Source: Elainellaceae cyanobacterium (lineage in GTDB: Bacteria; Cyanobacteriota; Cyanobacteriia; CAZCXK01). Taken from it: a stretch of 64,000 nt of DNA. This document shows positions 62-59,849 of this stretch, one piece after another. Positions within the stretch are counted from its first letter, which is position 1. Each line of letters opens with the position of its first letter. Position numbers and translations under genes: made by a program. The stretch covers positions 138,058 to 202,057 of the forward strand of contig JBNPEB010000009.1 in the NCBI GenBank assembly GCA_051117335.1, written 5' to 3'. The notes beneath the pieces were generated by a model. That model saw only the letters and a list, made by a program, of their open reading frames with translations, made no database searches and was not told the DNA's origin.

Positions 62-160
62 ATCTATAGCGACCCTAAATCGCTTGTGAATTGTGTGTGA
101 GCGGTGGGGCGGGCGTCGCCCGTCCCACCGCTCACAACCCATTTGGGATTGCTATATTCT
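62..160. repeat. Imperfect ~100-bp palindromic element, copy A (GC-rich core palindrome 97-135, TATAGC-type inverted termini)
   Basis: Core gtgagcggtggggcgggcg / cgcccgtcccaccgctcac is a 19-bp inverted repeat with 1 mismatch; flanks ctatagcg ... ttgctatat are inverted; same architecture at 50725-50830 and 59553-59665. Confidence 0.5.
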
Positions 161-274: not shown

Positions 275-3200
275 ATGTCGTTGGTTCTGCGGATTCAGGT
301 ATTGGGCGAGCTCTTTATCACCTATGGCGATCGCCCATTAGCAGGCATCACAACAGCGCGATCGCAAGCCTTGCTAGCGTATCTACTTTTACACCGCCAT
401 ACTCCCCAACCGCGCCAGCGAATTGCCTTTGATTTATGGAGAGATTCGGTAGATGCCCAAGCTCGCTCAAACCTCCGCAAAGAGTTAAGCTATCTACGCC
501 GTGATTTGCCAGACGCCAACTCGTTTCTATTGGCCGAGACAAAGACGCTGCAATGGTCACCAACAGCTCCATTCATGCTTGATGTGCTTGACTTTGAGAA
601 CGCGGTCAACGCAGCAGAGCAAACAACTGATCTCAACCAGGCGCGATCGCTCCTTGAACGGGCAGTGCAGCTCTATCAGGGGGATCTATTGCCAAGCTGT
701 GAAGACGAGTGGATTGTCCCTGAACGAGAACGGCTGCGGCAGATGAGAGGCCGAACAGTCGAGCAATTGATTGACGTGCTGAAAACCCAGCAAGACTATC
801 GGACGGCGATCGGCTATGCCCAGCAACTATTGCGAATCGACTCTCTTAATGAATCAACCTACGCATCACTGATGCAGCTACATAGCCTGAGTGGCGATCG
901 CGCGAGTGCGCTTCAGGTTTACTACCAGTGTATGGCCACACTCCGCGACGAGTTAGGCATTGATCCCAGTTCGACAACCCGTGATCTTTACCAACGCATC
1001 TTAAGTGAAGATGAGCCGTCGGAAGAGTCTTCTATCATCTCGGTCTCCCCTAGATCTACTTCCTCTGCTCCCTATCATGATTGGGGAGACGCAATCGATG
1101 TTTCTGTCTTCTACGGGTGTGACACTGAGCGATCGATATTACACCAGTGGATTGTCCATAATGGCTGTCGGCTTGTTTTACTGTTGGGCATCGGTGGAAT
1201 CGGTAAGACGGCCTTGGCAGTTAAACTGGCGCAAGACGTGCAGGCAGAATTTGAGTGTGTGATTTGGCGATCGCTACGAAACGCGCCTCCCCTCGAAACG
1301 CTGCTGGCAGACCTCGTGCTCTTCCTCTCAAATCAGCAAGACACAACCGCAGATGTCGAGCGGTTCATCCATTGGCTGCGGATGCGGCGCTGTTTAGTGG
1401 TTTTAGATAACCTTGAAACCATCTTCCAAGCGGGCGATCGCGCCGGACAGTATCGCCCAAATTACGAAGCCTATGGTGAATTATTCAGAGCACTGGGCGA
1501 GTTACAGCACCAGAGCTGCGTGATCCTCACCAGCCGCGAAAAACCCGCTGAAATTGCAACCTTGGAAGGCGCAGCAGCCGTTCGTACGCTTCAGTTGAGC
1601 GGTTCATTAGACACGGCCATGGCATTGATTGAGTCAAGGAATTTATTTGGTTCTGAAGCAGATAAACAACTACTCGCAAGGCAGTATGGCTGCAACCCTC
1701 TAGCCCTCAAGATTGTAGCGAGCTCGATTCAAGATTTGTTTGATGGCGATATTGATCAGTTTTTGCAGCAAAACGCCATCTTCTTTAGCGGCACTCGGCA
1801 GTTGCTAGAGGAGCAGTTTGAGCGACTCTCAGCCTTAGAGCAAACCATCATGATTTGGTTGGCGATTAATCGAGAATGGACAGCGATCGCCGAGCTAGCA
1901 GACGACATCCTCTCCCCCGTTTCACGCGCCAGTTTATTGGAAGCACTGCAATCTTTAAGTTGGCGAAGTCTGATTGAGAAGCGATCGGGCTACTATACTC
2001 AACAGCCTGTGGTGATGGAATATGTGACCCATTGCCTGGTAGAGCAGATTACAGATGAACTGCTCACCAAACAATTAAATCGCTTCAACCAATATGCCTT
2101 GATTAAAACAACGGCCAACGACTACGTACGCGAGAGCCAAACTCGATTAATTCTGGCAGAAGTCGCTGGCAAGCTTCGTCATGCAATCGGTGATTCCGTT
2201 CGACTGGAACAGCAGCTTTGGGCAATTCTGGCGGTGCTTCATGCGGAAGCGTCTGCACGCTCCGATTATGCCGTCGGTAATCTGCTCAACCTTTGCTGCT
2301 ATTTGGAGATGAATTTAACAGGGTATGATTTTTCCAACTTAAAGATTCGCCATGCCTATCTCCGGAAAGCAAACTTGCATCATGTCAACTTGCAGAATTC
2401 AGATCTAACTCACTCCACGTTTTCTCAGATGCTTGGAGGGGTTTTGGCTGTCGCATTCAGTCCAAGTGGTCAGCTCTTAGCGACTGGAGATAATCGAGGT
2501 CAAGTGCAGGTGTGGCGAGTAGCAGACGGACAGCTTCTGTTAACCCTCGCCGATATTCCAACCAACATCTATTCTGTGGTTTGGAGTCCTGATGGGGAAA
2601 TCCTTGCGAGTGGAAGCGGCGATCATACGATTAAACTTTGGCCTGTTTCAACAGGCCAATGTCTCAAAACCCTACAGGGACATACCAACTGGATTTTGTC
2701 GTTAGCGTGGAGTCCTGATGGAAAGATCTTGGCGAGTGGTAGTCAGGATTCAACCGTAAGATACTGGGATACGTCTACGGGACAGTGCCTGAAACGCTTA
2801 AATCATGCAGGTGCAGCTTGGTGTGTTGCCTGGAGTCCAGATAGCCAAATCCTCGCCAGCGGAGGAACTGGAGGGACGATCAATCTTTGGGATACATCGG
2901 GTAGACCCTATTTAGAGAGTTTCTCAGGTCATCGTGATGTCGTTTGGGCGCTTGATTGGCATCCAGAGGGTCAAATTCTTGCGAGTAGTAGCTCCGATCA
3001 AAGCATCAAACTTTGGGATATTTCGCGTCTGAGCACACCGCGCAACTCTACGAAAGAGCGCTTGAGCAAAGAGTGCTTAAGAACCCTGAATGGTCATAGT
3101 AACTGGGTCTTGTCTGTTGCCTGGACACCCGATGGGCAATTCCTCGTGAGTGGTAGTGCCGATCACACCATCAGACTGTGGGATAAGCAGGATGGTCACT

Positions 3201-4435
3201 GTTTGAAAACCCTGCAAGGGCATAGTAATTGGGTGTGGTCGGTTGCATGCAGCCGTTTATCAAAGAAAGCCGCTTCAAATGACACAGCATCTCAAAAGTC
3301 ACTTGGATTGATCCTTGCCAGTGGGGCTGATGATGAAGCGGTAAAATTTTGGGATCTGCAAACAGGTCAATGCTTAAAAACATTGCAGGGATATCGAGAT
3401 TATGCCTGGTCTATCTCATGGCATCCAAAGGGGCAAATGCTTGCGAGTGGTGGAGCCAGCCAGGTTGTGCGGATTTGGGATACCCACACGGGGCAGTGCA
3501 TTCGAACGCTAGAGGGGCATGATGACTGGGTCTATGCTGTTGCCTACAGTCCAACCTATGAGGAATTCTCAGACGAATTTGATTCCTTACTTGCTAGTGG
3601 TTCCCGCAACTATACGGCGATAGTATGGACGGTGCCAATCTCGGAAACAGGCCAAGAGCACGGGACAGAACCGCCCAAAAGCGAGTGTTGGAAAACGATT
3701 AAAGGATATCAAAATGTGATCTGGTGTGTGGCTTGGAATCCCAATCGACCTCTGCTTGCCGTTGGTAGCATGGACGGTGCGATCCGGTTTTGGGCAACCG
3801 ACACTGGACAGTGTATTCAGACACTGGACGAGCATCGGGGTTGGGTCATGGATATAGACTGGAGCACAGATGGACACATCCTTGCAAGTAGCAGTCAAGA
3901 TAAAACCGTCAAACTCTGGAACAGTCAGACAGGACAATGTCTCAACACCTTAGAGGGGCACGAGCTGGATATCTGGGCTGTTGCTTGGAATCCACACCAG
4001 GCATTAGTTGCAAGTGGTTCATTTGATAAAACGGTGAAACTCTGGAACCCTGATAGCGGTGACTGCCTGCAAACTTTATGCGGACATGCTTCTGGAGTTC
4101 TCTCGATCGCCTGGAGTCCAGACGGCAACACTCTGGCCAGTGGTAGTTCTGACAATACGATTCGACTTTGGAGTGTGGAAACAGGAAGATGTCTCAGAAC
4201 CCTTGAGGGGCACCATAATTGGGTGATGTCTGTGTCTTTCGCTTCAACGGGTGATGTTTTGGCAAGCAGCAGTCAGGATGAAACGATTCGACTCTGGGAC
4301 TGGAAGACAGGTCAGTGTTTGAAGGTGCTGAGAGCCACTCGCCCGTATGAAGGCATGAACATTACCGGCGTCACGGGGTTAACTGAGGCTCAAAAATCGA
4401 CGCTCAGGGCATTAGGGGCGATCGAAGTCAGTTAG
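275..4435 (+). CDS. STAND-type signalling NTPase: N-terminal SARP/BTAD DNA-binding domain, central NB-ARC/AAA ATPase, C-terminal WD40 beta-propeller repeats (AfsR-like)
   Basis: ORF 239-4435; ATG at 275 (MSLVLRIQVLGEL) preceded by GGAAGAG; SARP-like N-terminus; Walker A GIGGIGKT (nt 1189-1212); Walker B CLVVLDNLE; about 14 WD40 repeats (GHxNWVxSVAWSPDGxxLASGSxDxTIKLWD) from nt ~2440 to 4300. Confidence 0.85.
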   Translation: MSLVLRIQVLGELFITYGDRPLAGITTARSQALLAYLLLHRHTPQPRQRIAFDLWRDSVDAQARSNLRKELSYLRRDLPDANSFLLAETKTLQWSPTAPFMLDVLDFENAVNAAEQTTDLNQARSLLERAVQLYQGDLLPSCEDEWIVPERERLRQMRGRTVEQLIDVLKTQQDYRTAIGYAQQLLRIDSLNESTYASLMQLHSLSGDRASALQVYYQCMATLRDELGIDPSSTTRDLYQRILSEDEPSEESSIISVSPRSTSSAPYHDWGDAIDVSVFYGCDTERSILHQWIVHNGCRLVLLLGIGGIGKTALAVKLAQDVQAEFECVIWRSLRNAPPLETLLADLVLFLSNQQDTTADVERFIHWLRMRRCLVVLDNLETIFQAGDRAGQYRPNYEAYGELFRALGELQHQSCVILTSREKPAEIATLEGAAAVRTLQLSGSLDTAMALIESRNLFGSEADKQLLARQYGCNPLALKIVASSIQDLFDGDIDQFLQQNAIFFSGTRQLLEEQFERLSALEQTIMIWLAINREWTAIAELADDILSPVSRASLLEALQSLSWRSLIEKRSGYYTQQPVVMEYVTHCLVEQITDELLTKQLNRFNQYALIKTTANDYVRESQTRLILAEVAGKLRHAIGDSVRLEQQLWAILAVLHAEASARSDYAVGNLLNLCCYLEMNLTGYDFSNLKIRHAYLRKANLHHVNLQNSDLTHSTFSQMLGGVLAVAFSPSGQLLATGDNRGQVQVWRVADGQLLLTLADIPTNIYSVVWSPDGEILASGSGDHTIKLWPVSTGQCLKTLQGHTNWILSLAWSPDGKILASGSQDSTVRYWDTSTGQCLKRLNHAGAAWCVAWSPDSQILASGGTGGTINLWDTSGRPYLESFSGHRDVVWALDWHPEGQILASSSSDQSIKLWDISRLSTPRNSTKERLSKECLRTLNGHSNWVLSVAWTPDGQFLVSGSADHTIRLWDKQDGHCLKTLQGHSNWVWSVACSRLSKKAASNDTASQKSLGLILASGADDEAVKFWDLQTGQCLKTLQGYRDYAWSISWHPKGQMLASGGASQVVRIWDTHTGQCIRTLEGHDDWVYAVAYSPTYEEFSDEFDSLLASGSRNYTAIVWTVPISETGQEHGTEPPKSECWKTIKGYQNVIWCVAWNPNRPLLAVGSMDGAIRFWATDTGQCIQTLDEHRGWVMDIDWSTDGHILASSSQDKTVKLWNSQTGQCLNTLEGHELDIWAVAWNPHQALVASGSFDKTVKLWNPDSGDCLQTLCGHASGVLSIAWSPDGNTLASGSSDNTIRLWSVETGRCLRTLEGHHNWVMSVSFASTGDVLASSSQDETIRLWDWKTGQCLKVLRATRPYEGMNITGVTGLTEAQKSTLRALGAIEVS

Positions 4436-6750: not shown

Positions 6751-8238
6751 ATGGCTCGTCAACGATGGGCATCACGGCAAATCTTTGTGTTGGCTGCAAT
6801 CGGTTCAGCGGTCGGCTTGGGGAACGTGTGGCGATTTCCCTACTTAGCTGGCAAATATGGCGGAGGCGCTTTTCTAGTTCCCTATCTATTGGCATTCATT
6901 CTACTGGGCGTGCCGCTGTTGATTCTGGAAATCGCGATTGGTCAAAAAATGCAGCAGGGAGCCATTCACTCATTTCGCAAGCTGCATCCTGCCTTTGGCG
7001 GCATTGGATTAATGGCGATCGCCTCTTGCCTCTTCGTGGGATCTTACTATGCCGTTGTCATCGCCTGGTGTTTGATTTACCTGGTCAAGTCCTTTAGCAT
7101 TCCTTGGGCAGGAGGAGCAGAAGTATACTTCTTTCAAGATATCTTGCAGATTAACGAACATGTACAGCTTTTCGATCGCGTGAATCCTCCTATCCTTTTG
7201 GCTCTTGCCGCCGTCTGGATTGCGATTTACTTCTGCATCTGGAAAGGAACCCAAAGTGTTAGCAAAGTTGTTTTCTATAGTGTCCCGATTCCGGTCGTCA
7301 TTCTTGGCATTTTGCTAGTTCGAGCTGTTACATTGCCCGGTTTCTGGCAAGGGTGGCAGCTTTATTTGACACCGATCTGGAGTGTATTGGTAGCTCCTGA
7401 TGTCTGGACTGCCGCCTGCACTCAGATTTTCTTCACTCTGTCGGTCGGCTTTGGCGCCATGCTCACCTACGGCAGCTACAAAGACGAACAGGAAGATATC
7501 GTCAAAGATGCTTGGATAGCGGCTCTCATTAACAGTGGCACTAGTTTGTTTGCAGGCTTCGTAGTGTTTGCTGTGTTGGGACATATGGCTTGGATCGCCG
7601 ACACGCCTGTGTCAGACCTGGCTGCATCGGGTCCCGGATTGGCGTTTGTGGTCTTTCCCGAAGCGCTTAGCCTCATGCCTCTATCAGGACTGTTTAGCGC
7701 TCTGTTTTTCTTGATGCTGGTATCTCTGGGGATTGATAGCGCTTTTTCGATTGTGGAGCCAATCATCGCAGTTGTGCGCGATCGCCATCCCCAACTCTCA
7801 ATCTCCCATGTAGCAGCCTGGATTTGTCTACTACTGTTTGGCATCGGAGTCCTGTTTACAACCCGGTCTGGTCTTTACTTCCTCGACATTGTGGATCACT
7901 TTGTTACCCATTACGATATAGCGCTTGTGGGTATTGGGCAGGCTCTCCTAGCAGGCTGGGTGGTTGGAGCTGAATCGTTGCGCCGCTATATCAATCAAAT
8001 CAGCGATTGGACGGTTGGACGTTGGTGGAACATCTCAGTTCGCTGGATTGTGCCAGGTACTCTGACGATCTTGCTTGCGACTCAGCTTTCGACCGATTTG
8101 AAAACACCCTATGAAAACTATCCAGCCTGGGCATTGGCGATCGGGTGGGCAACGGTTGTGATTCCTATCCTGCTGTTTGGCTGGATGCTTGCACGCCGAC
8201 AGAAGCGCGAGTTGTCTGCGCCCCTCCACGAGGATTAA
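6751..8238 (+). CDS. Sodium-dependent transporter, neurotransmitter:sodium symporter (NSS/SNF) family
   Basis: ATG 6751 preceded by GGAGG; hallmark motif GNVWRFPYLAGKYGGGAFLVPY near the N-terminus; multi-TM throughout. Confidence 0.85.
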   Translation: MARQRWASRQIFVLAAIGSAVGLGNVWRFPYLAGKYGGGAFLVPYLLAFILLGVPLLILEIAIGQKMQQGAIHSFRKLHPAFGGIGLMAIASCLFVGSYYAVVIAWCLIYLVKSFSIPWAGGAEVYFFQDILQINEHVQLFDRVNPPILLALAAVWIAIYFCIWKGTQSVSKVVFYSVPIPVVILGILLVRAVTLPGFWQGWQLYLTPIWSVLVAPDVWTAACTQIFFTLSVGFGAMLTYGSYKDEQEDIVKDAWIAALINSGTSLFAGFVVFAVLGHMAWIADTPVSDLAASGPGLAFVVFPEALSLMPLSGLFSALFFLMLVSLGIDSAFSIVEPIIAVVRDRHPQLSISHVAAWICLLLFGIGVLFTTRSGLYFLDIVDHFVTHYDIALVGIGQALLAGWVVGAESLRRYINQISDWTVGRWWNISVRWIVPGTLTILLATQLSTDLKTPYENYPAWALAIGWATVVIPILLFGWMLARRQKRELSAPLHED

Positions 8239-8343: not shown

Positions 8344-9660
8344 ATGGCAACGGTTACTATTCCTAGCGGACAACTTGAAGAGACACCGATCACCCTGGCT
8401 GATCCAGGTGACTCCTTGATTGTTGAAGGGCAAGTGATTGCAAATCCGGCAGTCATTGTCCAAGGAGATTTGAATCATATCTTTGTTCAGCAAGGTGGAT
8501 CACTTGAAAGTGAAAATGCCACCGTTCAGATTGAGGGCACCAATGCCTCGGTCGTCAACAATGGGGTGATTGATGGTGCTGTCATTGATGTTGTGAATGG
8601 AGGCCAAGCCTCAGCCGTCATTTTGAATTCGGGCACCATTATTACTCGGCAACGAGCCATCAACATGGGAGGGGCATCAACGGCTGTCGTGAACAACGGC
8701 AGGATTGTCCTTCGCGATGATCCCAGTGATGGCACTATCTATTCAGATGCAACAGCCAAGAGCTTTTCCATCGAGAATCAGGCGAGCGGATTGATTGATG
8801 TTGGGCAAGGCAACAACGGTGATGCTATTTCTTTAGAACTGGGTGAGATTGTGGACGGTTCGGTCGCCAACCAAGGGGAGATCTATGGGCGGGGAGGAGC
8901 CAACTTACCCCATGCGGCTGCGATCCGCCTCTACAAAGGAGCCAATATCGAGGGAACCTCAACGTTCAACGGCAGCATTTCAAACACAGGTCTGTTGTCG
9001 GCTGAGACCAATGCGGCTGTTTTGATTGACGAAGGAGTTTTTCTCAGCGGTGCGATAACCAACAATGGAGTGATTGAGGGTGGCGTGTACAAAGCCAATG
9101 GAGCCAAGCTTGCCATCGATGGCCGTCAAGCCGAAGACAGCCTGACTGTCGTCAACAATGGCACCATCAATGGCGATGTGCTGTTGACCGGGGGCGATGA
9201 TGTCTACCGCAGCCGTACCGGAAACATTGATGGCATGGTTGTTGGTGGGGGCGGCGATGACCTGCTCATTGGCTGCACCCGTGGTGAAACTCTCAAGGCC
9301 GGTAGCGGCAATGATCGCGTCAAAGCAGGCAGTGGGGATGACGAGATTTTCGGGCAGCGAGGGGATGACGTTATTGATGCCGGTCGTGGAGATGATGTCA
9401 TCGATGCAGGCAAGGGCAACAATGTGGTCTACGGCCGACAAGGCGCGGATGTGTTCCGCTTGTCAAAAGGCAAGGGAGTCACCGTAATCGAGGACTTCAA
9501 GATCAGACAGGGTGACGTGCTTGATGTGAAGCGAGGTGCAATCAACCGCGTTGAGTTTTCTCAGGTCGGGCGAGATACCCTTGTCAGCATTGGTAGGGAT
9601 GACCTCGCGATTTTGAGTGGAGTGAATGCAAATAGCCTTTCGGATAATGTGCTGGTTTAG
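8344..9660 (+). CDS. Secreted calcium-binding protein with RTX (hemolysin-type) nonapeptide repeats
   Basis: ATG 8344 with AAGGAGA RBS; N-terminal beta-helix-like G/N/V-rich repeats; C-terminal GGxGxDxL-type repeats (GGGGDDLLIG, GSGNDRVKAGSGDDEIFGQRGDDVIDAGRGDDVIDAGKGNN). Confidence 0.75.
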   Translation: MATVTIPSGQLEETPITLADPGDSLIVEGQVIANPAVIVQGDLNHIFVQQGGSLESENATVQIEGTNASVVNNGVIDGAVIDVVNGGQASAVILNSGTIITRQRAINMGGASTAVVNNGRIVLRDDPSDGTIYSDATAKSFSIENQASGLIDVGQGNNGDAISLELGEIVDGSVANQGEIYGRGGANLPHAAAIRLYKGANIEGTSTFNGSISNTGLLSAETNAAVLIDEGVFLSGAITNNGVIEGGVYKANGAKLAIDGRQAEDSLTVVNNGTINGDVLLTGGDDVYRSRTGNIDGMVVGGGGDDLLIGCTRGETLKAGSGNDRVKAGSGDDEIFGQRGDDVIDAGRGDDVIDAGKGNNVVYGRQGADVFRLSKGKGVTVIEDFKIRQGDVLDVKRGAINRVEFSQVGRDTLVSIGRDDLAILSGVNANSLSDNVLV

Positions 9661-9737: not shown

Positions 9738-10352
9738 ATGAAAGTAAACAGACTATGGTCTGGACTGATCGTGCTGACCGTACTCGTGGGCAGTGGCTGC
9801 ACCCCTGGAGGGTCTGTATCAGTTGCTGGATCTAATCGTTCAGACCAATCCACAGCAAACGAACAGTCAGCTACAACCATTACCAGTTCTGATGGAATTA
9901 CCCAACTCACTATCCCTGCAGATTGGCACGACACATCAAACTCACTCACGGCTGAAAACTGGACTCTGTATGTGGGGACACGCGACAGTCGCGTTAGCGT
10001 CGCCGTTAAAACGATGTCCAAAGCCGAGGCTCCAGAAATTTCTGCGGATCTTCACGCCGGTGCGGCTTTGAATGCAGGTAAGGCTCCGTTTCAAGATGCA
10101 GAAGTGATTGAGCAAGACGTGCCTACTACGATCAACGGTTACTCTGCCGTAATGCACCAGGTTCGCGGCACGATGATGGACTATCCCATGGTAGCTGTCA
10201 CCTATTCCATTGAAACCCCTGAGCACTATCACAGTGCGGCAGTCATGATGTTGGCTAATGAGTTTGAGCGGCGGTGGCCTCAAGTAGAGCAGGTTTTGCA
10301 GTCGTTTGACGTGGTGGAATCCACTGAAGCCTCCGCAGAGCTATCTCCGTAG
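9738..10352 (+). CDS. Putative lipoprotein, hypothetical
   Basis: ATG 9738 with CAGGAGA RBS; signal peptide followed by lipobox-like LVGSGC (MKVNRLWSGLIVLTVLVGSGCTPGG). Confidence 0.55.
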   Translation: MKVNRLWSGLIVLTVLVGSGCTPGGSVSVAGSNRSDQSTANEQSATTITSSDGITQLTIPADWHDTSNSLTAENWTLYVGTRDSRVSVAVKTMSKAEAPEISADLHAGAALNAGKAPFQDAEVIEQDVPTTINGYSAVMHQVRGTMMDYPMVAVTYSIETPEHYHSAAVMMLANEFERRWPQVEQVLQSFDVVESTEASAELSP

Positions 10353-10392
10353 CAGTACCAGACATAACACAGCTAGACACCTAACATCCTGC

Positions 10393-10570: not shown

Positions 10571-12577
10571 ATGGCACTCGAAGATCTCAGAGCAATTGAC
10601 TTTGATGACATTGTTTCCGTTACTGAAGCTGAAAACTTTGCCGAAAACATCACGAATGGTTCATTTCGTACTGCCGAAGACCTAGGCGATATCACCGATT
10701 TGACACGAGGGGTTTCTGGCACGATAGAAGCAAGGGCTGCAATCGGAAACGCTAGCGACTTTATTGATACCTACAAGTTCACCGTCGATGAGCCCACCCA
10801 ATTCAACGCGATTCTAGACACCCTCGATCCTCAGCGTCAGGAACAGGTGGTCCTGCGCCTGTTCAAAGACTTTAATGGGGATGGGGTTTTTAATTTGGAC
10901 GGCCCCACGAGATTCTCTGATTTGCTACAAGGCACAGCCTTTCGAGGTCCCGAAGATACTATTGCGTTTGATCGGCTCGATCCAGGGGAATATCTTCTAC
11001 AGGTCTCCAGCCAGGTTGTAAACGATCCGATCGACTATCAAATCAAATTCGAAGCTCCGGAACTGGATACCGCCCAGCTTAACCTTGACCTGAGAAATAT
11101 CATTGCTGAAGATGATTTGAGCAGTGGACAATCGCCCATTCGATTTGAAGCTGAAATTGCAGGACAGGTGTTTGAGCAACGATTTGAGCAGGATTTTCAA
11201 AGGACTATTTTACCTGTTCAAGTTGACCCGAACGAGCGGGCGTTTGATATCAAACTTCGAGCCTTCAGGCTAAATGCCAACGGGACTGAAAGTCGGCTTG
11301 ATTTGGATAAACGTCGGGGAGACCTGGAGTTTGATGCCACGTTTGATACGTTGGGTGAAAAGTTGTTCAAGATAGGAGCGGGGATTAACGTCAATGAAAA
11401 TCAGGGATTTGTACAGATTGCCCGTGGTGATGAACGCGGCAATGAAGTAAGAGACGGATTTCTCAGCTTGCGCGTGTCCTATGACACCACTGCCGATCTC
11501 GATAATCCAGGGAACGATACTCCTGGCAACGATGATCCAGGTAACGATGCGCCTCAAATCCCGGACCCAGACAGTGTTTTGATTATCGGGACCGATCAGG
11601 ATGATGTCCTTGATGGGAATGAGCGAGGGAACCGCATGTTTGGCCTCCAGGGTAATGACACTCTAAATGGCAACGGCGGCAACGATATCCTCCAAGGGGC
11701 AGGCAATCCTGAAATTGCCACGACTGTTGGTGAAGGAGAAATCGATCGCCTCAATGGTGGTGCAGGGCGAGATACCTTTGTCCTCCACACCAACCGGGGC
11801 ATGACCGTGCTCTACGACGAGGGCGATCGCCGCAATCCTGGCAAACAAGACTTCGCTATCATCGAAGACTTCAACAAAAATCAGGACACCATCGAGTTGG
11901 CAGGCTCCCGCGAGGAGTACTTCATTAGCCGCTCCAACGTACGAAAGATTGCTGATGGTCGCGCCATCTTCCGCGATACCGATAATGATGGTCGCCTCCG
12001 AAAAGGGCGTGATGAGCTGATTGCGGTCGTTGAAGGAGTCAACAATCTCTCTCTAAATGACCTAGAGTTTATCGACATTCCGGTCACGATCGGCACCAAT
12101 CAGGCTGAACGACTTCAGGGCACAGGTCAAGATGGCATTCTCAATGGTCGGGGTAAGCGTGACATTATCAGTGCTAAAGGGGGAAATGATATCGTCCTGG
12201 GCGGTAACGGCAATGATGTGTTGAATGGCGGCAGCGGCGATGACATCCTCGATGGTGGCAAGGGTCGTGACCAATATCGCGGACAGGGTGGCAGCGATGT
12301 CTTTGTGATTCGAGAAGGTCAGGGGCGCGATCGCATTCTCGACTTCAAAGATGGCGTGGATGTCATCGGTCTTGCCAAAGGGTTGGAGTTTGAAGACCTC
12401 AGCTTCAATCAGCAGGGCAACAACACCCTGATTCGCGTCGAAGACGAAAAGCTCGCCATTGTCAAAGGCGTTGCGGTTGATCAACTGAGCGCTGAAGACT
12501 TTGTCTCCGTTGACTACACCCGCTTTGAAGGAATGCGAGTGCCCGTCGTGTTGGGTGTTGAACCAACGGTGGTATAG
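10571..12577 (+). CDS. Large secreted calcium-binding protein with RTX-type repeats and PGND tandem repeats
   Basis: ATG 10571 with AAAGGAGA RBS; GTDQDDVLDGNERGNRMFGLQGNDTLNGNGGNDILQG and GGNGNDVLNGGSGDDILDGGKGRD beta-roll motifs; PGNDTPGNDDPGNDAP from a 15-bp DNA repeat near 11506-11553. Confidence 0.75.
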   Translation: MALEDLRAIDFDDIVSVTEAENFAENITNGSFRTAEDLGDITDLTRGVSGTIEARAAIGNASDFIDTYKFTVDEPTQFNAILDTLDPQRQEQVVLRLFKDFNGDGVFNLDGPTRFSDLLQGTAFRGPEDTIAFDRLDPGEYLLQVSSQVVNDPIDYQIKFEAPELDTAQLNLDLRNIIAEDDLSSGQSPIRFEAEIAGQVFEQRFEQDFQRTILPVQVDPNERAFDIKLRAFRLNANGTESRLDLDKRRGDLEFDATFDTLGEKLFKIGAGINVNENQGFVQIARGDERGNEVRDGFLSLRVSYDTTADLDNPGNDTPGNDDPGNDAPQIPDPDSVLIIGTDQDDVLDGNERGNRMFGLQGNDTLNGNGGNDILQGAGNPEIATTVGEGEIDRLNGGAGRDTFVLHTNRGMTVLYDEGDRRNPGKQDFAIIEDFNKNQDTIELAGSREEYFISRSNVRKIADGRAIFRDTDNDGRLRKGRDELIAVVEGVNNLSLNDLEFIDIPVTIGTNQAERLQGTGQDGILNGRGKRDIISAKGGNDIVLGGNGNDVLNGGSGDDILDGGKGRDQYRGQGGSDVFVIREGQGRDRILDFKDGVDVIGLAKGLEFEDLSFNQQGNNTLIRVEDEKLAIVKGVAVDQLSAEDFVSVDYTRFEGMRVPVVLGVEPTVV

Positions 12578-14782: not shown

Positions 14783-15859
14783 ACTGATTTCTCCAAAGGA
14801 ATAAATATCAATAAACTCGATTCCATTTTAGCTTGATAGGAAATTCCTGAGCCTGCTCAATCGGTTAGTGCAAATTGGTCAGAAACCCACCAAAACCAAG
14901 GGTTAAACTAATATTCTCAGCGTTGAATACGCCTACGGACGGGAAGACATGCATCTAAATCAACTTCGTATGCAATGCACAATTCGCGAATATTTTTACG
15001 AAGACCAACAGCCCAATTGACCCGCTCTCCGATTGAAAGTGGTTCAATGTATCGCATCCTATCCGGCTATCACAGGCTCAAATGAAATCGGATGAAATCG
15101 TACTTTCGGTCAGGACTGGCAGCGGATCGCACTAAAGGATGATGCGAGTTATCTCTCTAATCTAAGGTCTAGCGATAGATTTCAGTTCTCTTATAAGCAT
15201 GTCTGTGACATGCAAGATCACAGATATTAAGAGTCCGGTGCATAAATATAGAGCACCAACAATTGTATCCTCTGGCAGGATAACAACCATTCCAGCAACT
15301 ATAAGTACTAGTGAAATAAACCAGAAAAAAAGAGTAGACATTGTGCAAAGCTCAACGAAGAAAATGGAAAAACCGCATTTGAGAGTAGCTTGATAGCAAC
15401 ACGATCTGCATATGGTGATTGCCGGCTAACTATTATTAGGCTGAAATTTTCCGCATAAGATCCTACAGCGGGTGGATAGGCAGAGTGATTCAGCATAACA
15501 CCCCAAATTTTATGCTTATGCAGATGATTTCTGCATAATATGCCGCTCAAGCAGATATAGCCAGAATCTTTCCGCATATTTTCAGATTCGTTACGGAGGT
15601 GAGCGAGTAGACTGTTAGTGCGATCGCCAAAGACCGGTCCTAGAGGACTAGAGGACCATCGCTCCCACAATTCCATTAAATCTTTCTAATGAGCCAAAGT
15701 ACGGTTGTATTTCTTTCACGAATACACTATTCTTTGCCATTAAGCGCTCAAACAGCGCAGCGCTCCCTAGAAGTGCCGCAAACACAACTAGGAAGCTAAC
15801 CCCTGACCCTGTCTCAGGCAGAATCAGTGGCTTTAGGCATTTTAGCTCCTATCGCCATC

Positions 15860-17160
15860 CTCCTTTGCCATGTCAAGTATCAGGGTGGCGTGTTTGTTTG
15901 AGCGCTCCTTATCAAAGCAAAAAGGAGCGTACTTCATGGTTTATCCACCCAACCCGCCCGGTGGGGCGGACAGTTCGTCCCGCCCGGATGACGATCGCCA
16001 TACCCTACGCATTATTGCAGTGGGGTCACTCACCGTTGTCAACCACTATGTGATGCAGATGTTTCAGCTTGACTATGCCGAACCCGGTGACTGGTCAAAG
16101 CCGTTGCCCACGGTGAATCCGAATGAAGTGATGCGGATTCTCACCAAACGCATTCGGGGGTTGAATACGTAAAGCCCAAAAACGCTAGGGTGCGTTGCTG
16201 TCAAGTGATGCTGTTGGCGAAACATTGCTTCATACGCTGAAAGTCTTGATACTACGCTGTCAGTCGTAAAAGCAACTTGTAGTTTTGTAACATAAACAAC
16301 CGTGGAATCAGCATTTGAGGTGTGAACAAATATTTCGCCAACAGCGTCCCTGCGTCAACCCAATCTACGGCGGAGTGTGCGATCGCACTCGACCAGGAGT
16401 TGGAACGCCGGGGCCACCGTTTTTCCCGCTATGTGGATGATGTGGTCATTTTGGTCAAATCAGCCCAAGCAGGTAGGCGAGTGTTCGCGTCAGCGTTGCG
16501 AAGCAATAGGCGAGTGTGACTCGCTATCTGACCCAGGTGTTACGACTAAAAGTGAACCCGAAGAAAAGCCAGGTTCGTCGGATTGAGCGATTGGAGTACT
16601 TGGGATTTACGTTCCAGGGAATCCGCATTATTTGGTCTGAGCGAGCCTTCCAGGACTTCAAGCACCGCTTGCGGGAGTTAACGTCGCGGCGATGGCGAGT
16701 GTCAATGGACTATCGGCTGAAGCGGATAAGCCTCTATTTGCGGGGTTGGATGGGCTACTTTGGGATCTCCCAACGGTATGGGCCAATTCCCGAACTAGAT
16801 GGGTGGCTGAGGCGTCGGATAATGCTTCGCAACGCTGACGCGAACGGATGTGCTATTGGAAACAGTTGCGTAGACCAAGGACGCGCATTGGCAACCTGCT
16901 CAAGTTGGGAACACCGAGGCAACATGCCTTCTCGACGGGCTTGAGCCGGAAGGGCTATTGGCGGTTGTCGCGGACGTTGGCGACGCAGACGGGAATGACC
17001 GATGAGTGGTTAGAACAAGAGGGATTGCTCTCGATTCGCGACCTCTGGATGAAAGCCCAGAGTTACGATGAGTAGTCCACTAATTTGTCTAGCAGTTAGG
17101 TTGAGAACCGCCCATTGCGGAGCCGCACGATGGGTGGTGTGGGAGGGGGGATTCGTGAGG
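15860..17160 (+). mobile_element. Decayed, 5'-truncated group II intron remnant
   Basis: RT/maturase fragments in three different frames (see pseudogene 16322-17075); GC-rich hairpins upstream (cgctcctt...aaggagcg at ~15908-15936; ggtggggcgg...cgtcccgccc at ~15950-15985) and downstream of the ORF; no intact RT domains 0-4. Confidence 0.6.
16322..17075 (+). pseudogene. Group II intron reverse transcriptase/maturase, frameshifted fragment (RT domains 5-7 plus X/thumb)
   Basis: Frame A: RYVDDVVILV (YxDD motif); frame B: LKVNPKKSQV..YLGFTF and LRGWMGYFGISQ (maturase X motif); frame C: CYWKQLRRPRTRIGNLLKLG ... SIRDLW; at least two frameshifts. Confidence 0.7.
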
Positions 17161-17387
17161 ATTCTCCCTATCCCGATTATGTGCGTGATCGCTTGCTTCA
17201 AGGAATTCATGAGCATGGTGCGTTCCCAAAAATCTATCGGTGGGGTAGTAGGCGTTGCAGTGGGGAACGCACCCTACAAGATCGGCGATCGCACTATTGG
17301 AAAGGGATGCTCTTCAGCAATCATCCTAGCGAATGCATCACCTACTTGCAGCCTACCTCCCTGAAACACCTATTGAGCCTCAATGTT

Positions 17388-30943: not shown

Positions 30944-32377
30944 ATGGTGCTTGTGATCGCAGGAGAACGCAGTGGCGTGGGTAAGACCACCGTAACCCTT
31001 GCACTTCTTGCCTATTTACGGTTTTCTTCTACCGTTTCAAAGTCTGCCAAAATTCAATCTTTTAAAGTGGGACCTGATTACATTGATCCCATGTTTCATC
31101 GGCATGTGACTGGGCAGCCCTGTCGAAATCTTGACCCTGTGCTGACATCTGAAGACTATATTCGGCAATGCTTTGAAACCCATCGGCACACTGCCGACTT
31201 CGCGCTGATCGAAGGAGTGATGGGGTTATTTGACGGCGCTAGCGGTGAACATGACTGGGCAAGCACGGCTCATATAGCTCGACTGCTCGACGTGCCGATT
31301 GTATTGGTGCTCGACTGTAGCCGACTATCTCGTTCGATTACAGCCTTGGTGCATGGCTATACCACCTTCGATACGCGGCTCAAATTTGCTGGCATTATTC
31401 TCAATCGAGTCGGGAGCGATCGCCACCTTGACCTGCTCAAATCTTCTCTGGCATCTCAAAGCCTCCCGATTTTAGGAATTCTCAGACGACGCGACGATAT
31501 TGCCCTTCCGAGTCGTCATTTGGGACTGATCCCCACTGACGAACTTCCCGAACTAGATGCCCGCATTCACCGACTCGCCACGCTCGCTGAAACCTGGTTC
31601 GACTGGTCTTCACTGCTGCCTCAACTTAGCACCCAAACTCCTCCCTACTCCTCCTTATCCCCTCATCCCCTCATCCACCCTCTCCCTCATCCACCCTCCC
31701 CCCCCTCTACTCCCACACTCCCGCACTCCCCCAAACTTGCCGTCGCCTACGACCCAGCATTCAACTTCTACTACGCCGACAATTTTGATTTGCTGATCCA
31801 ACGTGGAGCCGAGCTAGTCTTCTGGAGTCCGCTTTGCGATCAGGAATTACCAGACGGCATCAGCGGGCTTTATTTGGGTGGGGGGTTTCCTGAGATGTTT
31901 GCTGTACAGCTCGCCAATAATCAGGCGGCTAAAGAAGCGGTGAAGCTAGCGGTGAACAGCGGCATGCCTACCTATGCGGAATGTGGCGGATTGATGTATC
32001 TGTGCGATCGCCTCATCGACTTTTCCGAGCAATCATGGTCAATGGTAGGCATCATTTCTCTCTGTGTCCGCATGGGGAAACGATTGACCTTGGGCTATCG
32101 GCAGGCTGTGGCATATCACGATACCCCGTTGATGACTCGTGGGGATGTCGTCTGGGGACACGAGTTTCATCGGTCTGTCTTGGAGGTGGCGTCTCCCCAT
32201 CCGGTCTATGAGATTCGAGGATATGACGCTCAGATGCCTGCTCGGTTAGACGGATGGCGATCGCACCAGCTCCATGCATCTTATGTTCATCTTCACTGGG
32301 GCAGCCGTCCAGATATTCCAACTCGGTTTGTGCAAGCATGTCGAGAGTTTGCCAAACAGCACGATATCTCATCCTAA
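30944..32377 (+). CDS. cbiA: Cobyrinate a,c-diamide synthase with an internal Pro/Ser-rich low-complexity insertion
   Basis: N-terminal ATPase IAGERSGVGKTTVTLAL; C-terminal glutamine amidotransferase domain (ECGG); CT-rich insertion at nt ~31630-31740 (PPYSSLSPHPLIHPLPHPPSPPSTPTLPHSP). Confidence 0.85.
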   Translation: MVLVIAGERSGVGKTTVTLALLAYLRFSSTVSKSAKIQSFKVGPDYIDPMFHRHVTGQPCRNLDPVLTSEDYIRQCFETHRHTADFALIEGVMGLFDGASGEHDWASTAHIARLLDVPIVLVLDCSRLSRSITALVHGYTTFDTRLKFAGIILNRVGSDRHLDLLKSSLASQSLPILGILRRRDDIALPSRHLGLIPTDELPELDARIHRLATLAETWFDWSSLLPQLSTQTPPYSSLSPHPLIHPLPHPPSPPSTPTLPHSPKLAVAYDPAFNFYYADNFDLLIQRGAELVFWSPLCDQELPDGISGLYLGGGFPEMFAVQLANNQAAKEAVKLAVNSGMPTYAECGGLMYLCDRLIDFSEQSWSMVGIISLCVRMGKRLTLGYRQAVAYHDTPLMTRGDVVWGHEFHRSVLEVASPHPVYEIRGYDAQMPARLDGWRSHQLHASYVHLHWGSRPDIPTRFVQACREFAKQHDISS

Positions 32378-50724: not shown

Positions 50725-50830
50725 TCCTAATATAGCCTTACGCTCTCGCGTTCGGACGCTGAACGTGTGGTGAGTCCCGCGCCGCGAGGGCTCACCACAC
50801 AAACCTAGACCCATGGGGCTATAAAGACGA
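50725..50830. repeat. Imperfect palindromic element, copy B
   Basis: Core gtgtggtgagtcccgcgccgcgagggctcaccacac; flanks taatatagcc ... ggctataaag; shares gtgtg(g)tgag ... ctcac(c)acac(a)aacc with copy A. Confidence 0.5.
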
Positions 50831-54800: not shown

Positions 54801-54884
54801 TGCGTTCACAATTGCTAGAAATGCGTTCACATTTATTCGAAATGCGTTCGCAATGGCTAGAAATGCGTTCACAATTGCGAGAGC
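54801..54884. repeat. Four contiguous 21-bp tandem repeats (consensus TGCGTTCACAATTGCTAGAAA)
   Basis: Units at 54801-54821, 54822-54842, 54843-54863 and 54864-54884; ~300 bp upstream of aroH on the minus strand. Confidence 0.7.
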
Positions 54885-59439: not shown

Positions 59440-59552
59440 GTTCACTATGCTTAAGCGTCCGAGATTGGGGCTAATCATATCCAAAGTCCATCATGATCTC
59501 AATCTTGGTCTTTAAAAAATCTGAAGCGAATCTTGAGATCTCTGGCGACTTA

Positions 59553-59665
59553 GGATCGCTATATAGCAATGTGCGCGTCAAGTACAGAAACGGTGGTGTG
59601 GGGCGTGCCGCGCCACACACACCACCGTACTTAACGCAAGCGCATACCGCTATATAGCGAATTCA
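59553..59665. repeat. Imperfect ~110-bp palindromic element, copy C
   Basis: Termini cgctatatagc (both ends, inverted); core acggtggtgtggggcgtgccgcgccacacacaccaccgt; the two halves align as an inverted repeat. Confidence 0.5.
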
Positions 59666-59849
59666 AATCATCGGGTGCCTGGAATAGTACGTTCGCTGAG
59701 TTTCTATAGTTCACCTAAAGTTAGCCCCTGTTTTGAATATGTCTCCCTAAGATAGAAAGAGTTAGCAAGTTTACGATGTGTTGCTACAAAGCACCCAAAA
59801 GCTTTGCAGCAGCTACAGGAGTATATCCTCAGCAGGAGGGAAGGGACAT

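Follow-up and report, generated by a model that had tools for sequence, protein, structure and literature searches.

Palindromic TATAGC-ended elements of an uncultured Elainellaceae cyanobacterium as probable TA-inserting MITEs

Three palindromic elements, referred to here as A, B and C, were studied in a window of 64 kb (the whole stretch of DNA that was analysed). [quoted passage not shown] Elements of this kind are present or absent at orthologous sites, TA is found at the empty sites, terminal repeats bound the elements, copies are dispersed and nested, and the ends of A are akin to those of palindromes in Nostocales. The original prediction had left open whether the elements are MITEs, REP-like sites, or structured RNA or regulatory sites. 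The first of these options is supported by further B-type copies with the same termini and by orthologous empty sites at TA.

The source of the window is an uncultured Elainellaceae cyanobacterium. The sequence is cyanobacterial in its 86 HIP1 octamers and 49% GC, and an Elainellaceae MAG encodes an FBPase 100% identical to its own; look-ups of UbiA and Zwf from the window returned no exact-protein record. Comparisons were made with sister genome GCA_051162585 (loci L081 and L001), sister genome GCA_051117555 (locus L106), and a separate Logan read-archive assembly (locus L107). The DNA of the sister genomes is ~90% identical to the window (~10% diverged). A scan of a genome collection based on SppA yielded mostly Nostocales loci, in which synteny stopped short of the B and C sites, and these loci were later used for the comparison of TATAG palindromes. 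For a comparison of the A site, the flanking BTAD-NACHT-WD40 gene offered no close ortholog, the best being 61% identical.

All three elements start with TATAGC and end with GCTATA (Table 1). Together with the B-type copies from the sister genome they measure 92-95 nt, are wholly intergenic, and contain no ORF. The predicted hairpins bounded by TATAGC and GCTATA were thus confirmed for all three copies, as was their intergenic position, judged from the positions of the genes. The GT-rich/CA-rich central palindrome was seen in the apical stems as described, and so was the motif common to A and B, GTGTG(G)TGAG...CTCAC(C)ACA. The terminal inverted repeats are imperfect, with ungapped matches at 19/24 positions in A, 13/24 in B, and 15/24 in C, compared to 14-16/24 in the B-type copies of the sister genome. 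The palindrome of C reaches 59556-59660, since the presumed insertion site TCGC-TA-GCGA is itself palindromic.

Table 1. Positions of the three palindromic elements and their apical stem-loops in the window.
Feature	Position	Strand	Description
Element A	65..156		92 nt; TA + TAGCG...TTGCTA + TA
Element A, apical GC-rich stem-loop	96..136		19 bp, 3-nt loop; from fold and inverted repeat
Element B	50731..50823	-	93 nt; B-type subfamily, consensus reads on minus strand
Element B, apical GC-rich stem-loop	50765..50800		from fold
Element C	59562..59654		93 nt; near-perfect palindrome
Element C, apical GC-rich stem-loop	59590..59628		from fold

Element A lies ~120 nt upstream of the BTAD-NACHT-WD40 gene (ATG at 275), B within the spacer between the divergent genes ppx and ubiA, and C ~195 nt before the start of fbp (59850), with a PG-binding/HEAT gene on its other side. 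The gene downstream of A (275-4435) encodes a SARP-like BTAD-NACHT/AAA-WD40 protein of 1386 aa, with a best match of 61% in the protein collection, and it may be a STAND-type gene that is accessory or evolving fast. At copy A (61-158), outward-facing pairs of sigma-70-like hexamers straddle both ends (plus strand, CTCACA-16-TATATT; minus strand, TTCACA-18-TAGATT); each pair is weak, with 9/12 matches, and they are reminiscent of the promoters that Correia elements create at their ends. At C, the Logan contig L082 (SRR34563345) starts inside the element, its positions 1-40 corresponding to ~59628 of the window. The organism behind this contig is apparently the same as that of the window (FBPase 100% identical), and the palindrome of C breaks the assembly.

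The pattern TATAGC-N60-90-GCTATA has five matches in the window against 0.05 expected, and three of the five are A, B, and C. The other two lie inside an SNF-family transporter gene (7917-7990) and a CobB/CobQ-like gene (31273-31361). They fold weakly, without hairpin potential, and were taken as chance matches, though they too stand above the expectation of 0.05. RNA folding, proposed as a check of the original prediction, gave one long hairpin for each element, with minimum free energies of -57.5 (A), -49.0 (B), and -62.9 kcal/mol (C) and z-scores of -6.9, -4.4, and -7.8, respectively; none of 200 shuffles was as stable in any of the three cases. When the whole 64 kb were folded in sliding segments of 110 nt, C ranked first, A second, and B eighth in stability. 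A scan of the whole window at Rfam gathering scores gave no match. The three regions contain no T-runs or terminator-like sites after A, B, or C, and a reading of the elements as intrinsic terminators was rejected on these grounds; for B, such a role is also excluded by its position between the divergent starts of ppx and ubiA.

Below the level of architecture, the three elements differ considerably. Global alignments of A, B, and C, in which the six terminal bases were held fixed, gave z-scores of 1.3-3.5 against shuffles, which is barely above background. The subterminal inverted repeats differ (TAGCAATCCCAAAT... in A, TAGCCCCATGGGTC... in B, and TAGCAATGTGCGCG... in C), and what unites them is a common length, the same termini, and an apical stem of 17-19 bp that is GT-rich/CA-rich. 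By sequence, A, B, and C each stand for a divergent subfamily of their own, and they do not form one tight family. The original prediction of one family with a shared architecture therefore stood with regard to termini, length, and apical stem, but the sequences are barely alike elsewhere. Each subfamily has one copy in the window, and it is seen only once in this genome because only 64 kb are visible.

The B-type subfamily is the best sampled. Four copies (B and three in L081) are 82-91% identical to each other, and B itself is 82-85% identical to the three copies from GCA_051162585. The B-type apical stem has 17 pairs and is 97% paired; 4/17 pairs change on both sides, all of them in one copy. 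A covariance model was built from the four copies and run without filters. On the window it recovered A over its full length (65-156, on the minus strand; 29 bits, E 4e-6) and C over its full length but marginally (15 bits, E 0.1), and no further element. The original prediction had also included a core-only relative at ~15950-15985. This proved to be an 11-bp hairpin inside an ORF (z -1.3, 18/200 shuffles as stable), and it was dropped as a family member, as its fold is not significant and the B-type model does not match it.

Further copies with the same termini, which the original prediction had called for, were found in sister genome GCA_051162585. Locus L081 contains full B-type copies at 662-755, 10026-10120, and 10282-10375. 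Of a further copy, a 5' piece (9998-10027) and a 3' piece (~10148-10186) remain, interrupted by a nested full copy that is inserted at TA. The resulting B-type cluster (9998-10376) lies between an N_methyl gene and a WD40 gene, with two full copies within 400 nt.

Alignment of orthologous target sites pointed to insertion at TA. B is exactly absent from the orthologous ppx-ubiA spacer in L106 and L107, where the spacer is otherwise nearly base-for-base the same. The filled site in the window reads CTTCCTAA(TATAGCC...GGGGCTATA)AAGACGAT, and the empty sites read CTTCCTAA-ATA-AAGACGAT in L107 and CTTCCTAA-AGA-AAGACGAT in L106. The HEAT-fbp spacer holds C in the window, a B-type element ~140 nt farther upstream in L081, and neither in L106; C is absent from the orthologous spacer of both L081 and L106. 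Aligned with B in reverse complement, the L081 element in this spacer shows 82% identity. Its filled site is GGCGTT(TATAGCC...AAGCTATA)GAATCTG and the empty site in L106 is GGTCTT-TAA-GAATCC; the same position is empty in the window, too. C lies within a window-specific segment of ~172 nt (59525-59696) that is missing from both sister genomes. On either side of C, the bases (ACTTAGGATCGCTA/TA ... TA/TAGCGAATTCAAATC) look like inward-facing A-type ends and form a palindromic site with CTAG.

Every copy can be parsed as TA + TAGC...GCTA + TA. TA thus brackets every copy. The empty sites of the two B-type copies hold TA plus one extra A/T (AGA for B in L106); both are one A/T longer than expected from simple TA duplication, so that they are consistent with a 2-bp duplication of TA without matching it exactly. 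The extra base is attributed to, rather than proven to stem from, indels in A/T runs between the diverged genomes. The orientation of the elements relative to the flanking genes varies, and both orientations occur. Presence and absence, dispersal, fragments, nesting, and varying orientation are those of a dispersed mobile repeat and not of a conserved cis-regulatory RNA.

Palindromes with related ends have been described in Nostocales. Anabaena variabilis contains many GTAG-15 REP dimers inside long palindromes with the consensus TATAGGAnTnnnATTTGATTnnTGAAA--TTTCAnnAATCAAATnnnAnTCCTATA, which were never found empty and were regarded as sites into which REPs insert (Di Nocera et al. 2013, PMC3733652). 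The consensus TATAGGAnTnnnATTTGATTnnTGAAA is present exactly in the Nostocales loci compared here, and the variants TATAGCAATCCGATTTGATTTTTGAAG and TATAGCAGTCCTAAATCATTTGTGAAA grade it into the ends of A (TATAGCGACCCTAAATCGCTTGTGAAT). All TATAG sites in the loci were scored against both ends of A, amounting to ~4160 comparisons. The bulk of the scores centred on 5-6 matches, and at least 13 matches were reached in only 14 of the ~4160 comparisons, mostly by TATAGCAATCC-type ends; the best scores, 16/22, belonged to the ends of Nostocales elements. A agrees with the consensus TATAGGAnTnnnATTTGATTnnTGAAA at 14/21 specified positions, and B and C share only TATAG(C) with it. The end matches and the graded variants place A in a cyanobacterium-wide group of palindromic elements with TATAG ends.

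Two of the Nostocales palindromes have empty sites with a clean single TA. In Nostoc, the filled site of L035 reads gaaac(TATAGG..328 bp..CCTATA)ctatc, and L040 is empty with gaaac-TA-ctata. The 105-bp element of L044 reads ttc(TATAGC..GCTATA)gtaaaag, and both L014 and L051 are empty with ttc-TA-gcaaaag. These empty sites indicate that the whole palindrome is the mobile unit and not a target of REPs, and the evidence is that the Nostocales TATAG palindromes are themselves TA-duplicating MITEs. TATAG palindromes were located at L035 12386-12713, L044 4155-4259, L067 14307-14457, and L075 13263-13372, and some of them enclose GTAG REPs, as seen in the L035 and L067 sequences. The interiors of the window elements showed no similarity above chance to the REP-bearing elements of Nostocales. 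Two candidate homologies were dropped, as the local alignments were not above shuffles: one of the B-type 3' region (CGTCCTAACGC) with Nostoc REPs, and one of a supposed decayed B remnant in the fbp spacer of L106.

The GC-rich form of 93 nt looks confined to a narrow lineage, given that no copies were found in other Elainellaceae, Leptolyngbya-like, or related loci (L083, L108, L110), in JGI metagenome contigs, or by blastn against plasmids and phages. A search of the JGI contigs with the B-type motif CACACGTTNNNCGTCCNAACG gave 21 matches, all due to chance and from unrelated organisms, and a string search of the literature for the terminal-repeat sequences returned unrelated primers only.

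In the mechanism we propose, the element would be a unit of ~89 nt, TAGC...GCTA, set between duplicated TAs, which would give the visible TATAGC...GCTATA ends. Imperfect terminal inverted repeats of ~18-24 nt would surround the GC-rich apical stem. A transposase encoded elsewhere in the genome, most likely TA-specific and of the IS630/Tc1-mariner type, would bind the terminal repeats, excise the element, and insert it at a TA, and gap repair would duplicate that TA. A, B, and C would represent subfamilies of one cyanobacterial group of TATAG-ended palindromes, of which Nostocales would carry an AT-rich form. A 2-bp TA duplication combined with terminal inverted repeats is the signature of IS630/Tc1-mariner transposition, and mobilisation in trans by an enzyme of this type is proposed for this reason. 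For the cyanobacterial element ISY100, ends of ~24-30 bp suffice for transposition (PMC2170065). We infer both the identity of the transposase and any current activity of the elements. Stable hairpins in the 5'-UTR, or TATA junctions that resemble a -10 box, could likewise affect fbp, ppx/ubiA, and the WD40 gene.

The window encodes no transposase of any kind, and neither it nor ~1.7 Mb of other loci yielded a full-length or autonomous IS with matching ends. Three candidates were considered as an IS or IS end and rejected: a 1563-bp TATAG pair in L006 that begins inside a 589-aa ORF, a site at 2919 of L035 that lies inside a 544-aa ORF, and a 2176-bp pair in L087/L088 that spans several ORFs, on unrelated metagenome contigs obtained from chance motif matches.

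The main rival is a REPIN or REP-like origin, in which a RAYT (an IS200/IS605-type Y1 HUH transposase) would move the whole hairpin in single-stranded form. Pseudomonas REP doublets and Nostocales GTAG REPs are examples of this route. Such a route would account for selection on the whole hairpin, and the size of ~93 nt and the full-length hairpin indeed resemble REPINs. Length and apical stem are conserved across subfamilies with differing terminal repeats, and the B-type stem is kept by the two-sided changes in 4/17 pairs, with 97% paired. However, the hairpins carry no GTAG/CGTC tag at their foot, the sole GTAG being inside the stem of one sister copy, and the window contains no Y1 transposase (Y1_Tnp) gene. 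Moreover, TA is duplicated in the clean Nostocales cases, the window copies are bracketed by TA, and the empty sites of B show TA or AGA, while HUH/RAYT elements are not known to duplicate their target. The related TATAG palindromes of Nostocales do enclose GTAG-type REP dimers (PMC3733652; L035 and L067), but the similarity of the B-type interior to these REP-bearing elements is not above chance. We regard the RAYT route as improbable, and the REP-like option of the original prediction gave way to the missing GTAG/CGTC tag, the length of 93 nt, and the probable TA duplication. A different view of the same structure is that the whole folded hairpin is the recognised substrate, either in a structure-specific (single-strand or cruciform) mobilisation that duplicates TA, or in a two-tier parasite that may consist of a REP-like apical module inside TA-inserting carriers. 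This is suggested by the 92-95-nt length, the TATAGC termini, and the compensatory apical stem, all kept despite differing terminal repeats. The constant length and similar apical stem are a counterpoint to a model based on terminal repeats only, and yet we consider this view unlikely. If true, a single enzyme yet to be discovered would lie behind the TATAG palindromes, the REPs embedded in them, and the orphan Correia elements.

Selection by the host could also maintain such structures for their function in promoter or 5'-UTR regions, where they might be hairpins of cis-regulatory RNAs, genes for small RNAs, or sites of protein or cruciform binding. In favour are the high stability of the hairpins, the compensatory changes in the apical stem, the promoter-proximal positions upstream of fbp, ppx/ubiA, and the WD40 gene, and the weak outward-facing promoter-like hexamers at both ends of A. 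This explanation is nevertheless very unlikely, as elements come and go at orthologous sites with conserved flanks in genomes only ~10% diverged, and the fbp spacer holds members of different subfamilies, at separate positions, in two genomes. In addition, orientation relative to genes varies, the sister genome has clusters, fragments, and a nested copy, and no Rfam match or terminator features were found. The structured RNA or regulatory option raised with the original prediction was set aside on much the same evidence. That the elements are chance GC-rich hairpins with common short termini finds some support in the weak primary-sequence similarity of A, B, and C (z 1.3-3.5). This reading is effectively refuted by the five pattern matches against 0.05 expected, the like lengths of 92-93 nt, the top ranks in fold energy within the window, the homologues of B that are 82-85% identical elsewhere, and the end-to-end recovery of A by the B-type model at E 4e-6. 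Integron attC sites were also considered and rejected: on reading, the three sequences showed none of the attC core-site motifs, no integrase is found among the scanned window genes, and there is no cassette arrangement.

As probable TA-inserting MITEs, A, B, and C should be annotated as repeats and not as regulatory RNAs, and they break short-read assemblies. The elements sit directly upstream of the central-metabolism genes fbp-zwf, ppx, and ubiA, and strain-specific insertions could therefore alter expression. They are an ordinary kind of genome parasite, and what is new is the lineage-specific form in Elainellaceae. The cyanobacterial TATAG palindromes, earlier described as targets of REP insertion, on this evidence reach beyond Nostocales, and the family may offer a second handle on the question of the Correia transposase.

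Other features of the window were noted along the way. A 21-nt tandem repeat (TGCGTTCACAATTGCTAGAAA, 3.9 copies) occupies 54801-54882, between a chorismate mutase gene and sppA, and the TGCGTTCACAATTGCTAGAAA array in GCA_051117555 (L106 12144-12439) extends over ~300 nt with ~14 units, versus 82 nt in the window. An ORF at 16516-16944, in the region ~15700-17300, encodes only a GIIM (group II intron maturase-specific) domain, consistent with a group II intron that has degraded; nearby, at ~17106-17215, there are strong local RNA-like folds. Two neighbouring genes (8344-9660 and 10571-12577) encode RTX calcium-binding nonapeptide repeats and adjoin the ADYC-domain and SNF transporter genes.

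Several known systems resemble the window elements to varying degrees. Transposons of the IS630/Tc1-mariner type and their MITEs, such as ISY100 of Synechocystis, duplicate TA, as the window elements probably do, and need only short ends, and the family is known in cyanobacteria; it is by TA duplication that the window elements are tentatively assigned to IS630, and no IS630-type transposase gene or full-length element with TAGC... ends was found in the sequences compared. Nezha, the MaeMITEs, and the Anabaena MITEs are likewise non-coding, with terminal and direct repeats, stable structure, and polymorphism between empty and filled sites (PMC3184786). Compared by description only, they are longer, at 130-435 bp (PMC3184786) versus 92-93 nt in the window. 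REPINs are, like the window elements, intergenic hairpins of ~70-110 nt with compensatory evolution of the arms. A REP is recognised as an imperfect palindrome of 20-40 nt with a GTAG/CGTC tag at one end, or as an inverted doublet (PMC3733652). Unlike REPINs, the window elements lack the GTAG/CGTC tag and probably duplicate TA, and no RAYT gene is present in the window.

Outside cyanobacteria, the closest analogue by general features is the Correia element (CREE/NEMIS) of Neisseria. No cognate transposase is known for Correia elements. Most of them are found upstream of genes, and as RNA they form hairpins. Correia elements, at 104-157 bp, are likewise non-coding palindromic MITEs whose repeats begin with TATAG[CT]; they duplicate their target (PMC2649163), as the window elements probably do, and their ends can create -10-like promoters (PMC10969869). 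However, the window elements share only the first 6 nt (TATAGC) of the 26-nt Correia repeat TATAG[CT]GGATTAA..., Neisseria belongs to a different phylum, and the window elements give no evidence of an IHF site or RNase III processing. With only six bases in common, this is a likeness in kind and not membership, and the resemblance may be convergent, arising from the targeting of TA.

The TATAG palindromes of Nostocales come closer. They differ from the window elements in being longer (105-328 nt in the loci compared, versus 92-93 nt) and in containing GTAG-tagged REP dimers, whereas the window elements are GC-rich with a single GT/CA-rich apical stem. The centres of the window elements contain no GTAG-15 REP dimer, but a single GC-rich stem without a GTAG tag, and the terminal repeats of B and C have only TATAGC in common with the Nostocales consensus. 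Nevertheless, both are full-length palindromes with TATAG...CTATA termini in a cyanobacterial host, and Nostocales ends such as TATAGCAGTCCTAAATCATTTGTGAAA match the 27-nt ends of A at 16/22 positions.
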